Part shown: positions 34 through 32,300 of the stretch, one piece after another
How the letters are laid out: every line of letters begins with the position of its first letter
Position numbering within the stretch: the stretch's first letter is position 1
Assembly (NCBI GenBank): GCA_020137815.1
Contig: CM035362.1
Location: 4,464,001-4,528,000, forward strand
DNA: 64,000 nucleotides
Origin: Hormiphora californensis
Lineage: Eukaryota > Animalia > Ctenophora
Direction: 5' to 3'
Notes under the pieces: generated by a model
Seen by the model: the letters and a program-made list of their open reading frames with translations, nothing else
Told to the model about the DNA's origin: nothing
Databases searched by the model: none
Position numbers and translations under genes: made by a program

Positions 34-2360
34 CTTATATCTGGCACCATACTGTACTTCTTCATTGAGATAAGAAAGTAGCTGAGAGCAGTGATAAATT
101 TAACTTTGGATAACAGCTGTCGAACTTTTGGCTTTTTAGTTAGCCACTCCCTGTGTGTGATTAGGAGGTAATTAGAAGGTAATTAGTAGGTAATTAGGAG
201 TCAATTGTGATGTTATTATGAGGTAATCATGATGTCATTAAAATTGGGAAGTACAGTAGGACCCCGATTTACCGGAACCCCGATTTACCGGGAGGATAAA
301 CTTCCCCCGATATAGGAAATTAACGGTATTTGACCCCGATATACCGGGCACCCCGATTTACCGGGCAAAACCCTTTCCCCCGAGCATCCCGGTAAATCGG
401 GGTCCGACTGTACTTCCCAATTTTAATGACATCATGATTACCTCATAATAAGAAGTGGGATACTGAATCATTTTACCTGACAGAGGCCCTTTGAGATTGC
501 AGCCAGCAGGTTAAAGGTTGATGTGTATCACCCGCTAGCTTATCAAGCCCTTCCCTGTAAAATATTAATTAACTTGTTAATAGTAATTAGTAATTATACT
601 GTTAATTGTGCTTGTTAGTGCTCTAGGTACAGAAGATTTCTGGAGTACAAACGAAACAAAAATACTTGTTTCGTTTGTAGTTAATTATGCAATTAATTAA
701 TAATTATGTAATAATAACAATAATTAATATTCAATTAACTAACCGTGTGAATGATGTTATATCATGTTGAATTGAGAAGGCAATCAAGTTCTTGTGCTGC
801 TGAGCCTCCTTTACACTACACAACATTAGCAATCCAATACTATCCAATATCTGGGAGGATACATAAATTAGGTCATAAAAAGGCCATATTTGAGAGGATA
901 CAAAAAATGATAAAAACAGAATCAGAGCTGTTAACCTCATTCTATATAGACTTTAGAGAGGGTCTAGCAACTAGCAACTTACCAGGAACCGACCGAATCA
1001 AGAAATACTAGTCCCTGATTGGCTGATAACCAGTCACGTGACCTAAATAACGAGTTCTGATTGGTTGTTTACTTGTTTCGGTCGGTTCCTACAACTTACC
1101 TCCTTGCTGATCCTCTTGCACTCTTCTACGTCATCACCCTCTTCTCCCTCTCCATAGAAGCCACCCCAGTGAGGGTCATTGTGAAAATCGTACATTCCAT
1201 AATCCTGGGACCAGAAAGTAGGACTAAATTAGGAGGGAAAAAAGGAAATCCATAATCATTGGGTCAGGATTGATTTGCAACGAAGGGATTTATTCCGAAC
1301 TGTGGATCATGATCATTGGCTGGTAAGTGACGGTGTGTGGGACAAATAAAAGTGTGACTTCAAAGTAAATAAGGTTCTGCCAAATACCTTGAATATGGCT
1401 TGTTTGTCAACCCGAGTCTCTGGCTGGCCATCTTTATTTACATTCATGAGATCAGTCCACCGTTCTGTAAACTTTTGCCGCCGCTCCCTTCCAATATGGG
1501 CACCGTGCCAAAGACCCTGAAAAATATGTACTAATTAAGTAACTAATTACTAACTAGGTAATTAATTACTAATTGGTTAATTTTTTTTAATTCGAGTTCT
1601 GCCGTGTTCTACGCCGTGCGTAAAGAAAATAGGTAACAATCAGATAATGGCATCTTATGCAGTAAAGCCCAATTACATCTAGCAGCTAAAAAAGTGTTTT
1701 TCGCAACCCACCTTCATAAAATAATCCAGCTCCAGCATGGTCTGAGCAACGTGAGTGTCAATGTACGCTGGAGGGATGTCCACAAAGGTTCCCCGATCAA
1801 ACTTGGGCCGAAGGGAAACACTTGGTAGTTGTTCAAACACATTGATACCCACGGTAAGCTCTCGAATTATTTGTTGTATTTCTCTGAGATCGAAACTTTC
1901 GTCCTTTTTCCGGTTCTGTTTGGAAGAAAGATTAAACTTTTGGAAGAGAGAGAGAAAGCGAGTTTCTTGATATATTTGAAAAATCAAATTGTGTTCCAGC
2001 TTTATTGTCACGTACAAGAAGTGGGTCCTTTTCCACTAGAATCACATAATTTGTTAGATTTTCCAGTGTCGGGTTCGCTATGTTGGTTAAAAGTCCATTG
2101 CTCAATTCTGATGCCTGAAAGAGAGGGTTAGATATCAACTAGTGATTACTAAAAATAGTTCAAATTTATTGGTTTCAGGAGCCAATAATTAGCTCGCAAT
2201 AAAAGTTAATATTTTCACCTTTTCATCGACAATATTCTGGGCAAATAGCCAATCATGTGGTTTCGTTGAAAGCAGCTCCTGGAGCTCATCCTTCTCGAAC
2301 TTGTCAAAGAAAACGGTCGCTAGGGAGGGCGTACTCAGACTCTCCGGGGATTCCATTCAT
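34..2360 (-). CDS. ANKAR: Ankyrin and armadillo repeat-containing protein, 5' part (multi-exon, continues beyond window start)
   Basis: Spliced exons (~2360-2219, 2114-2016, 1915-1712, 1517-1389, 1204-1100, ~855-744, ~555-477, ~150-34) give MNG..SDRFFDKFEKDELQELLSTKPHDWLFAQ..FDLREIQQIIRELTVGINVFEQLPSVSL..IPPAYIDTHVAQTMLELDYFMK|GLWHGAHIGRERRQKFTERW..NKDGQPET. This is collinear with the ANKAR N-terminus as I recall it (FFEKYDRSEIQELL..DYREVHQMIRELAIGI..PPAYYDTRIGQIL..ALWHG). GT-AG junctions are in phase. Confidence 0.88.
254..410. mobile_element. Tc1/mariner-type MITE (CAG..CTG TIRs, TA TSD), family A
   Basis: TA|CAGTAGGACCCCGATTTACCGG...CCGGTAAATCGGGGTCCGACTG|TA; related copies at 19516, 24579, 27038, 37978, 41772, 63101. 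Confidence 0.85.
983..1091. mobile_element. hAT-like MITE family B (109 bp, 8-bp TSD CAACTTAC)
   Basis: TIR CAGGAACCGACCGAA..TTCGGTCGGTTCCTA flanked by CAACTTAC at 975-982 and 1092-1099. Confidence 0.88.
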
Positions 2361-2818
2361 GAGACCGGGCTAACGATGGTTAATGGTATTTATAACGAAA
2401 TAATACAGCTGTATTTAGGTATCAAGCAGACTGCATAAGTTGGCAGAATCACAGTCCGGGGGACTCTTGTCTTTTTAATTTTTTTTGTCCGGGGGACTTT
2501 TTAGAAACTTAAGGAAATTTTTTTAAACTTAAAAAAAGTTTGGAAGTGAAATTCTCAGCTGAGAAGTTACGCCGCGCGCATCACAAGGCAGTGTGGGAGA
2601 TGCGCGCCAGTAATTTGCAGCGCAATGTCAAATTCCAAGCGGCATACCACCGGAAGTGAAAGATCTCAAAAGCAAAAGAAAGATCGAAGATCATTCAGTC
2701 ACCAGTGGTCTGTTCATCTGATATAACCGAACGATGGTGATGATTAGGAAATCAAAACTCCAATTTATTTTCTTGCCCAGATTCACTTTGAGGGAATCGG
2801 AGTCGAACAAGTCCAACG

Positions 2819-29300: not shown

Positions 29301-32300
29301 ATCGGACATGACCACATAGTGCACAGGTCTCTATAATACATAACTGGTCATTATTCAAAAATAGTATATTTATAGGTAAGGTGAGAATATGAGGAATGTT
29401 GAACCAGTAAAAGAATGAGATGAGTGGTTTAAGACAACGTCATTCGTCTATTATTCTATTCTTGCATCTTTGGTTCCAATACAGTGCTACATAAACCAGC
29501 TTTTATGTAGTCAGAAATCTTATCTCCCTAAAGTTATGTTTATGTTTTCTCTCTCTCTCTCTCTCTCTCTCTCTCGCTCTCTCTCTCTCTCTCTCTCTCT
29601 CTATCTCTCTCTCTCTCTCTCTCTCTCTCTCTCTCTCTCTCTCTCTCTATCTCCCTCTTTATGACAATATATGACAGCGTGACGTGTGCTATATATGGTT
29701 TCAACACCACCACACCTTGACAAGTGCAAAAGCGATTATAGCATACCAATATGAATCATGATATATTTTATGTAAATATGTGTCCTGTACTACAACAATT
29801 GAAGAGGGGTTCATGCATCAGGAACCGACCGGATTAAGTAAACAACCAATCAGAACTCGTTATTTAGGTCACGTGACTGGTAATGAGCCAATCAGGGACC
29901 AGTATTTCCTGATTCGGTCGGTTCCTGGGTTGCATGAAGCTCAGAGGGAAGGTTTGTTGGAATCATTTTTTGGCCCATCCTTGCAAAGATAGCTGCAATG
30001 TGGGAATTATAGGAAACGATCACACCCAATTATACCCCACTAAATTACTTTTTATTGTACCCTAAATCAAGTCCAATTCACTATGATTATTAATTAATTG
30101 TTAATTATTAATTAATTAATCCCTCCCCAAGGTACCACATAGGTCGATACTCGTATGATCTGCCTCGAAGACTCCAGAGAGCAGAGATAGCTCGTGCTAT
30201 GCAGATTTGGAAAAAAGTAGCACCCATTGAGTTTTTAGAGGTAAAATAGTATGGAAAGTGAGATAGTTACTTTTATTAAAGAGAGCAAAAGTGAGATAGT
30301 TACTTTAAGTAAAGAGATATATGTATTATCTAATCTCCCTCTTTTCAGAGTAGGAGATACAATAGAGACGTTGACATTGTGCTCTCCTTTCAAACCTACT
30401 ACCACAGAGACGAGTTCTCCTTCGATGGTAGCGGTGGTAAGTAGGAACTTTGTTTGGTTTTGTGACAGATTACTGTTATGATGAAGCATCTTTGATTCTT
30501 TGACTGGGTCACAGAGATAACTAATAATAAGTTAGTTACTATAGCTGATCCTCACATTTTAGGTTTGTTTACTCAGTCCTTCTTTAATTTAAACAGTATC
30601 ATGATCCCATGGTGTTCTGTCAGTAGTGTCAGTATTATATTATAGTATTATTTGTATTACTTGTAACATCTAGCTATATATTTTGCAGCCTACCCCAATA
30701 ATTACATGAATAATATTCATCTTGTGATCGCACACGCCCATAACTTGATTAATCGATCTAAGTGTCCTTATCATTCTCTCTCTCTCTCTCTCTCTCTCTC
30801 TCTCTCTCTCTCTCTCTCTCTCTCTCTCTCTCTCTCTCTTCTCTCTCTCTCTCTCTCTCTCTCTCTCTCTCTCTCTCTCTCTCTCTCTCTCTCTCTCTCT
30901 CTCTCTCTCTCTCTCTCTCTCTCTCTCCCTCTCTTACTCACAATTTAAAGGACACACCCCCAAAAAGTGCAGTAACCCCCGATCCGATACCGCCCTTCAT
31001 AACTCATGATACCCTCTCACACAGACATACACACACATAATTCCCGCCCTAGTAGTAGAACAAAATACTGAAACTGATAGCTATATCTCTACAGGAGAGA
31101 TAGCCCACGCATTCCTTCCAGAAGCTGGAGTTATTCACTTTGATGACTCGGAACAGTGGACGTCGAAACAGGATTACGGCATCAATCTATATACGGTGAG
31201 TTTTATGAAGGAGCAATAAAATGTTTGATAAAGGAGCAAACGAGTTCAAATGAATAAATTCTCATCGCATAGTTCAAAAAATATAATATAAAAACTCCTG
31301 CATACATTTGGGTTTCGGATGTTCATTTTTTTCTTATCTTGATCTGCTGTCCGCATTTGGCCCATTTTCCTCAACTTCGTTACTCATACTACCTATTATC
31401 TCTGTGCCATGGAATTTCATACAAATTTAACTCACAAATTCCATAAACACGTACTAAAGTCATCCAAGTGTGAAATTATTCAATTTCAATTACCCAGTCC
31501 TGTTCATGTGTCCAACAATATACTACCCATCCCTTCCAACAGCCCCGGTTTGGTACTAACTCGGTCCCTAGGTAGCAGCCCATGAGATAGGCCACTCGTT
31601 GGGACTGGAGCACTCCAGCAAACACGGTGCTATTATGTCTCCTTTTTACGATGATTTCTCGACGGAAAAACACCTAAACCCAGACGATATCGTCAGTATC
31701 CAGGAACTGTATGGTAAGTTGCAGGAACCGACCGAATCAGGAAATACTGGTCCCTGATTGGCTGATAACCAGTCACGTGACCTAAATAACGAGCTCTGAT
31801 TGGTTGTTTACTTGTTTCGGTCGGTTCCTGGTGAGTTGTCTGGTGTTCACGTCGACCCTTTCCTTTAGAGCAGGTCTGGCACACGTCACACTATGTGACA
31901 TGCTTCCGTGATCGAGCTGCATGAAACCACAGAAAGAGGGTGTGTTAGTGTGTTACAGAGTGAGAGAGAGATAGAGAGAGTGTGTGTGTGTGTATGTGTG
32001 AGAGAGAGGGATAAATTTAGTCAGAAAGAATTAAATTATTGGGATGTATTATAGGATTGAGTTAGGTCCAATATCATAACACAGCAACGCGAACGGCCAA
32101 AACTATCCCACTTTCTTTCTCTCTCTCTCTCTCTCTCTCTCTCTCTCTCTCTCTCTCTCTCTCTCTCTCTCTCTCTCTCTCTCTCTCTCTCTCTCTCTCT
32201 CTCTCTCCCTCTCTCTCGCGGCTTAAATCTCCCCTAGGTTCTAGAGGTGACCGATTGCAGTACCACTGTCCCAATCTCTCACTCTCCTCCATTCTGCAGG

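Follow-up and report, generated by a model that had tools for sequence, protein, structure and literature searches.

A miniature transposon at 5' splice sites in a genomic window of Hormiphora californensis: apparent palindromic target preference and a probable residual bias towards functional donors

Transposons known to use safe harbours either target multicopy RNA genes, as described for Dada elements (PMC3706591), or turn into introns, as Introners do. In this study, a 109-bp MITE (miniature inverted-repeat transposable element) is described from a 64,000-nt stretch of the ctenophore Hormiphora californensis (GCA_020137815.1, contig CM035362.1, positions 4,464,001 to 4,528,000 of the forward strand; hereafter the window), where four of its six copies lie directly behind a 5' splice site (donor). 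The closest described systems are outlined here, and compared below. Hobo/Hermes-type hAT elements share with the present element an 8-bp target-site duplication (TSD), short terminal inverted repeats (TIRs) starting CAG and non-coding MITEs, and the hobo target motif, NTNNNNAN, refined to GTNCGNAC, is a palindrome with T2 and A7, as here (PMC3276498). In the P family the TSD is likewise 8 bp long and the target motif starts with GT and ends with AC (PMC3276498). Dada is also a DNA transposon with a harmless dispersed target class, and some Dada elements target U1 and U6 snRNA genes (PMC3706591). Introners resemble the present element as MITEs with TIRs and TSDs, a splice signal in the TSD and a likely linker bias (bioRxiv 10.1101/2022.06.06.494994), while cases of Tc1 by host splice sites provide an example of a TIR transposon that lies a few bases from a donor and whose TIRs pair in the pre-mRNA (PMC12779559). 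The pattern in the window is real and unusual: about half of it is explained by the coincidence of the element's motif with the donor, and beyond this a preference for functional donors appears to remain.

Six copies of the element were found when both strands of the window were searched; all of them are intronic and lie within the first 32 kb. Full-length copies measure 109 bp, with 15-bp TIRs that begin CAGGA, and their pairwise identity is 93-97%. Both ends read CAG/G inward and CCTG/ outward (a slash marks a junction). A single open frame of 36 codons is open by chance and the element is otherwise non-coding, with no match in an Rfam search of the window. The element is a MITE, being short, non-coding, bounded by TIRs, flanked by a TSD and dispersed at high copy number. 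TSDs of 8 bp have been detected in three of the six window copies (1, 4 and 6), as well as in metagenome copy L005. The original prediction, made from the sequence of the window, held that four of the six copies sit directly behind a donor, that in three of them the TSD is exactly intron +1..+8 and that the fourth follows GTAAGTA (6806-6800, minus strand). All of this was borne out, each coordinate and letter having been found correct on checking, with the addition that the fourth, copy 3, is truncated. The exon and its donor are left intact in copies 1, 4 and 6, and the second donor that had been expected 117 nt downstream is present in all three. Copy 3 represents either an insertion at +8 or one at +9 with a C lost from GTAAGTAC/CAGG. 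The copies and their duplicated sites are as follows.

983..1091, no strand assigned: full-length copy 1 with TIRs of 15 bp, inside an intron of an ANKAR-like gene (minus strand)
1092..1099, minus strand: proximal TSD of copy 1, GTAAGTTG, equal to intron +1..+8, the original donor
975..982, minus strand: distal TSD of copy 1, the duplicated donor, CTG/GTAAGTTG
3697..3789, no strand assigned: copy 2, internal deletion, rearranged flanks, intronic, non-donor site
about 6708..6799, minus strand: copy 3, without the second TIR and distal TSD, the final 17 nt or so missing
6800..6806, minus strand: donor of copy 3, GTAAGTA, first coding intron of a 450-amino-acid gene
14138..14246, no strand assigned: copy 4, full length
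14130..14137, plus strand: proximal TSD of copy 4, GTAGGTAA, equal to intron +1..+8
14247..14254, plus strand: distal TSD of copy 4, GTAGGTAA, the duplicated donor
29819..29927, no strand assigned: copy 5, mid-intron in an MMP gene, degenerate TSD, non-donor site
31722..31830, no strand assigned: copy 6, full length, TIR pairing predicted from intron +9
31714..31721, plus strand: proximal TSD of copy 6, GTAAGTTG, equal to intron +1..+8
31831..31838, plus strand: distal TSD of copy 6, GTGAGTTG, one change from the proximal TSD, the duplicated donor

The end of copy 2 lies 44 nt from the next acceptor. A reading of this copy as an acceptor duplication was rejected, since homologues place the acceptor those 44 nt beyond it.

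The four occupied donors are supported by homologous proteins across the junction in two cases and by the reading phase or a domain end in the other two. Gene models of the ctenophore Pleurobrachia bachei match exons of the window at about 75-100%. The exons whose donors are occupied are the following.

1100..1204, minus strand: ANKAR-like exon with copy 1 at its donor
6807..6839, minus strand: first coding exon (MIDIVPPTPVR) of the unnamed 450-amino-acid gene, with copy 3 at its donor
13984..14129, plus strand: exon 2 of the gene matching P. bachei model P0168, with copy 4 at its donor
31572..31713, plus strand: MMP exon, running from the zinc motif as far as the catalytic domain's end, with copy 6 at its donor

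At copy 1, the exon continues into the next one in phase 0, and two exons farther downstream are matched by P. bachei model P0169, whose domains include ankyrin and armadillo. A contig from organism B matches from 1091 onward, is preceded there by 542 unmatched letters and does not enter the element; judging from this alignment, the donor of copy 1 probably lacks the element in organism B. A contig of run X5 begins exactly at 1092, a weak hint that filled and empty alleles may both exist, and the flanks of the copy are covered by DNA contigs of another sample. At copy 3, homologues P0170 and P0169 both join PPTPVR/KSRR across the junction, and as P0170 was called on a 1407-base contig it is apparently spliced. 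The host of this copy is a separate gene upstream of the ANKAR-like gene. P0168 splices at VAELR/A in phase 1 at the donor of copy 4, with its later exons located downstream of the copy at 14.5-15.4 kb. At copy 6, the exon end corresponds to position 159 of the 159 of Peptidase_M10 (match 111-159, E 7.6e-17), and a hemopexin-like exon is found further downstream (weak match, E 0.07). RNA contigs (X7, X8) bridge several exons of the 450-amino-acid gene, and none crosses the MITE-bearing junctions of copies 1-3, for which the comparison was made. This gene, expressed and comprising 11 coding exons, occupies 3338-6839 on the minus strand; it has no Pfam match, and the LIN37-like or NOL11-like identities first considered for the gene at 3.3-6.8 kb were dropped on that account. 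In model P0169 this gene is wrongly fused to the ANKAR-like one, and a part of it is repeated three times.

The target preference of the family was deduced from the residues flanking the element in database proteins, which encode the TSD, and not from DNA. Between 551 and 951 database proteins contain the translated peptide of the element, and four of ten that were looked up are P. bachei gene models. The flank sample was drawn from 167 of up to 951 proteins, and 23 right flanks duplicating a left flank were removed before counting. For TSD positions 1-2 the residue behind the element was left out, being confounded by predicted splicing at CCTG/GT. The resulting matrix, from 100 left flanks, gives A3 at 0.43, T6 at 0.43 and A7 at 0.56, with T2 at just 0.33 and neither G1 nor C8 clear. 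The final codon of the TSD encodes tyrosine in 28 of 184 copies, compared to a background of 3.5% (p = 7e-11). The other frames of the element yielded too few flanks (12, 7, 9, 20 and 7); five flanks of the 12-flank frame end in AC and three of these five fit a donor, which is not significant. These data suggest that the family prefers the palindrome nTAnnTAn, in agreement with the palindromic nature of the hobo and P motifs (PMC3276498). The plurality letters of loose contig ends appear to agree with it in part: those of three ends are GTATATAC (X5, 137 contigs), GTAAATAT and GTTTATAG (X10, 236 and 397 contigs), while two others differ, ATATTTAC (X5, 173 contigs) and ATAAATAT (X10, 97 contigs). 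The palindrome has T2, A3 and T6 in common with the donor GTAAGT, and it is through this overlap that donor hits fall exactly on +1..+8, all four filled donors being GTA[AG]GT. Sequence-directed targeting, which had been proposed in the original prediction, is therefore supported.

Sequence preference does not by itself explain this window. When the elements are taken out, the 22 supported donors gain about 4-fold under the measured matrix, and under it, with 60 donors, the probability of at least three of six copies at a donor is 1e-6. An extreme matrix (0.7 per base) with 100 donors raises this value to 6e-4, and the probability of at least four of six is 1.5e-5 or lower in all matrices tried. 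The window contains 38 GTA[AG]GT sites, of which six are supported donors (1099, 5148, 6806, 14130, 30437 and 31714) and three are probable ones. Two supported donors carry no element and serve as controls.

30437..30444, plus strand: supported MMP donor, G/GTAAGTAG, no element
5141..5148, minus strand: RNA-supported donor, T/GTAAGTAA, no element

The comparison of real donors with non-donors of the same motif, which the original prediction had set as its test, favours real donors within the window: the supported donors are filled in four of six cases and the other such sites in none of 32 (p = 2e-4). Counting the probable donors, the figures are 4/9 and 0/29 (p = 1.7e-3), and for the longer motif G/GTA[AG]GT they are four of five donors and none of 10 non-donors (p = 3.7e-3). 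With copy 3 excluded, p is 0.01-0.02, or 0.022 for the longer motif.

Several observations weigh against a strong attraction to donors. The comparison covers six copies in a window that had been selected because it shows the pattern, and the conditioning motif was picked after seeing the data. A metagenome pattern scan gave seven loci, namely four true copies, two of them with both ends, and three core-only loci (L001, L002 and L006) which have the core motif in common with the element and nothing more. None of the four true copies lies at an evident donor, their flanks being CTTCTAAC, GTAGACCC and two single ends; the chance of such an outcome is 0.03 if the donor share is 60% and 0.66 if it is 10%. 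In the protein data, where the residue pair Thr-(Tyr/His) was taken as the mark of an opposite-strand donor, the pair occurs in 8 of 41 copies ending in Tyr/His and in 12 of 143 others (p = 0.047). This proxy is marginal, with Gln doing better (p = 0.023) among the 20 residues tested and a widening to Asn/Asp giving p = 0.23, and none of the 100 left flanks fits a same-strand donor. Copies within real genes are probably under-represented in the proxy, since gene predictors would use true donors for splicing and tend to avoid overlaps. Taken from these sequences, the donor share outside the window looks far below four of six. With 3000 windows assumed, a donor share of 0.4% (sequence only) leads to an expectation of 1e-5 such windows, one of 5% to 0.26 and one of 10% to about 4. 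It is estimated that 5-20% of copies genome-wide, and not 67%, lie at donors, which would be 10-50 times the value for sequence only and would place the window in the upper tail.

Pattern scans of prokaryote genomes gave no matches, while those of viral contigs gave 30 chance matches and no true copy, with no match to the internal motif. An AT-rich metagenome contig (L001:760-830) holds the core of the element, CCAAT-like boxes around TCACGTGA, without TIRs, a hint that the core may be a wider motif or an older relative. In addition, the frame of the element sits as a false coding segment in hundreds of predicted Pleurobrachia proteins (P0001-P0167, which are P. bachei gene models and unnamed open reading frames), up to nine times in one model.

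The explanation that we favour, with modest confidence, joins a hAT-like sequence preference for nTAnnTAn to probable access at exon edges and near-neutral survival. The transposase would be of the cut-and-paste kind, with a stagger of 8 bp and a hAT-like TSD and motif, and would choose nTAnnTAn sites, and a further 10-50-fold bias towards donors may come from chromatin, with a nucleosome-covered, GC-richer exon beside an AT-rich linker at the intron start. This chromatin step is suggested by the drop in GC across 22 donors, from 0.44 on the exon side to 0.33 on the intron side, by the nucleosome-linker bias stated for Introners and many DNA transposons (bioRxiv 10.1101/2022.06.06.494994), by the position of copy 2 near an acceptor and by the presence of a TA-target element at +2/+3 of a likely MMP donor. 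Insertions would be close to neutral, with the proximal TSD copy keeping the donor. A TIR hairpin from +9 would, in addition, bury the acceptor-like CAG/G end and bases -3..-1 of the duplicated donor. Such a hairpin is predicted in three of three folds (z -3.2 to -4.7), although in two of them the proximal donor is predicted to be partly paired too, which weakens the safe-hairpin step. It had been suggested that the MITE could be exonised through the distal donor. Use of this donor adds 117 nt, or 39 codons, in frame, and a stop codon is met in all three of copies 1, 4 and 6, so that a dead transcript and no new coding segment would result. Open reading through the element requires a phase-1 intron and the other orientation; a possible example is P0150, an open reading frame (ORF) in which the element has GKI on either side.

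A pure DNA sequence preference, for a longer palindrome such as G-GTAnnTAC-C, together with a lucky window would make donor function irrelevant. It has been reported that hAT and P elements read 14-bp palindromes with GT at the TSD start (hobo GTNCGNAC, P GTCCGGAC; PMC3276498), two of the three TSDs in the window are an identical 8-mer, the extreme matrix with 100 donors would provide about 2 in 3000 windows with three of six copies at donors, and none of the four outside copies is at a donor. Nonetheless, the measured matrix is far softer, the ten non-donor G/GTA[AG]GT sites are all empty where four of five donors hold an element (p = 3.7e-3, or 0.022 if copy 3 is excluded), and four of six copies at donors keeps a probability of at most 1.5e-5 in every matrix tried, which makes this account unlikely. 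The same empty sites would be expected if the transposase homed to functional donors through the splicing or transcription machinery, for example the U1 small nuclear ribonucleoprotein (snRNP) on elongating RNA polymerase II, with the motif setting the exact cut. Of the 23 supported donors, the four that are filled, all GTA[AG]GT with G at -1, match U1 best. The U1 pairing region reaches +8 of the intron, so that the TSD ends at the last pairing base; however, this end is automatic for an 8-bp TSD beginning at GT, two of the six window copies and all four outside copies lie off donors, and literature searches show no precedent. Such tethering, the other option in the original prediction, is considered improbable, and it is equally doubtful that a ctenophore DNA transposon has evolved a splicing-directed safe-harbour strategy, guided by U1 snRNP or the transcribing polymerase, with a cut placed so that the 8-bp duplication covers intron +1..+8 and with tens of thousands of dispersed targets.

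Selection after insertion has also been considered, in which sequence-biased insertion would be followed by the purging of other genic copies, as a copy in mid-intron offers a cryptic 106-nt exon that is impossible at +9. The parts of this exon are present, with CAG/G inward and CCTG/ outward at the element's ends and GT in the TSD; the element is often taken for coding sequence in P. bachei gene models (551 and 951 matches); and copies 2 and 5 are without a GT directly behind the element in the gene sense, the CAG of copy 2 also being lost. Purging is unable, on the other hand, to lift absolute donor occupancy to four of six, and most of the empty same-motif sites are antisense, intergenic or in other transposons, outside its reach, for which reason this account is held to be very unlikely. 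That these introns were made, or are defined, by an Introner-like unit, or that the pattern is an assembly artefact, is largely refuted and would be most surprising. The TSD does provide a GT, as in some Introners, yet the element ends in CCTG and not AG, the introns continue well beyond it and the junctions at copies 3 and 4 are present in homologues. At copy 1, the organism B contig match stops at the donor without entering the element and DNA contigs of the other sample cover the flanks.

In terms of classification, the element behaves like a hAT transposon and is a candidate member of that superfamily. It has an 8-bp TSD and its target agrees with the hAT motif nTnnnnAn, with A7 at 0.56 and T2 at just 0.33 in the 100 left flanks inferred from residues. 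The start of hAT TIRs follows the consensus YARNG. Two points stand against the affiliation, as base 5 of the TIR is A and not the G of this consensus, and no DNA transposase is evident among the ORF lists of the window, of which only some ORFs were profile-scanned. When compared to hobo, the apparent preference is the AT-rich nTAnnTAn and the accumulation at donors goes beyond the motif. The P superfamily fits in TSD length and was rejected on its GC-rich motif GTCCGGAC (PMC3276498), with C3 and G6 where the inferred motif of this element has A3 and T6. Merlin elements, with TIRs of 24-462 bp starting 5'-GG and an 8-9-bp TSD (PMC8101967), were excluded on the 15-bp TIR starting CA. Dada elements have no TIRs and a 6-7-bp TSD and are strict for multicopy RNA genes, including insertion in snRNA or tRNA genes (PMC3706591), features that are lacking in the present element, with its loose motif and single-copy protein genes. 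Introners insert into exons and turn into new introns, whereas this element enters existing introns, duplicates the donor and makes none; there is no acceptor at its distal end and the next exons lie further on. The word Pleurobrachia is absent from the accessible text of the Introner study (bioRxiv 10.1101/2022.06.06.494994). The Tc1 cases are single laboratory alleles with RNA removal by a hybrid SOS-spliceosome process, for which no targeting preference has been claimed (PMC12779559), and here, in contrast, the donor is intact on the exon side. The mark of a proposed donor-targeted class, functional donors being filled above identical non-donor motifs, was observed within the window only. 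A full-text literature search, exclusive of subscription papers and Repbase, found no description of this family, nor of any DNA transposon with enrichment at 5' splice sites, and the accessible part of PMC12221973 contains nothing on the element.

Additional features of the window have been recorded. A second MITE family, with a TA target and CAGTCGGACCCCG ends, is present in six copies. In the copy at 37976-38136, the TA duplication corresponds to +2/+3 of the likely MMP hemopexin donor (G/GTA followed by the element), and positions +4 to +6 of that donor are altered by the insertion. Another copy of this family (254-410) lies 66 nt behind a donor at 476, and a larger inverted repeat with arms of about 40 bp surrounds a TA-type MITE at 213-451 in an ANKAR-like intron, as a nested or inverted-duplication structure. 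Long-ORF non-LTR retrotransposon copies occur at 11019-13100, 21027-21803, 33164-37367 and 56645-60988, the one at 33-37 kb being antisense and inside the MMP intron that begins with copy 6. A C2H2 zinc-finger array gene (8844-10753, minus strand) encodes about 15 fingers in one exon. The gene at 24606-25490 on the minus strand encodes a small acidic protein, probably secreted; its first exon is signal-peptide-like and terminates at a GTAAGT donor (25390), and its second exon runs into a GA/TA microsatellite. Near-perfect long foldbacks of 290-330 bp, which are unclassified, are found at 42088-42413, 42733-43056 and 61803-62101.

If true, the preference described here would add intron starts, as a type of site not described before, to the places where a transposon can land safely, and an enrichment of at least 10-fold over the first eight bases of introns that already exist would constitute a further target class. 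In a plainer reading, a palindrome that matches GTAAGT makes each donor insertion a harmless duplication of the donor. In practical terms, the element is worth masking as a contaminant of P. bachei annotation. The family also makes the evolution of transposase preference towards splice signals a testable matter, and it supplies many natural tandem donors 117 nt apart with which donor choice may be followed in an early-branching animal.

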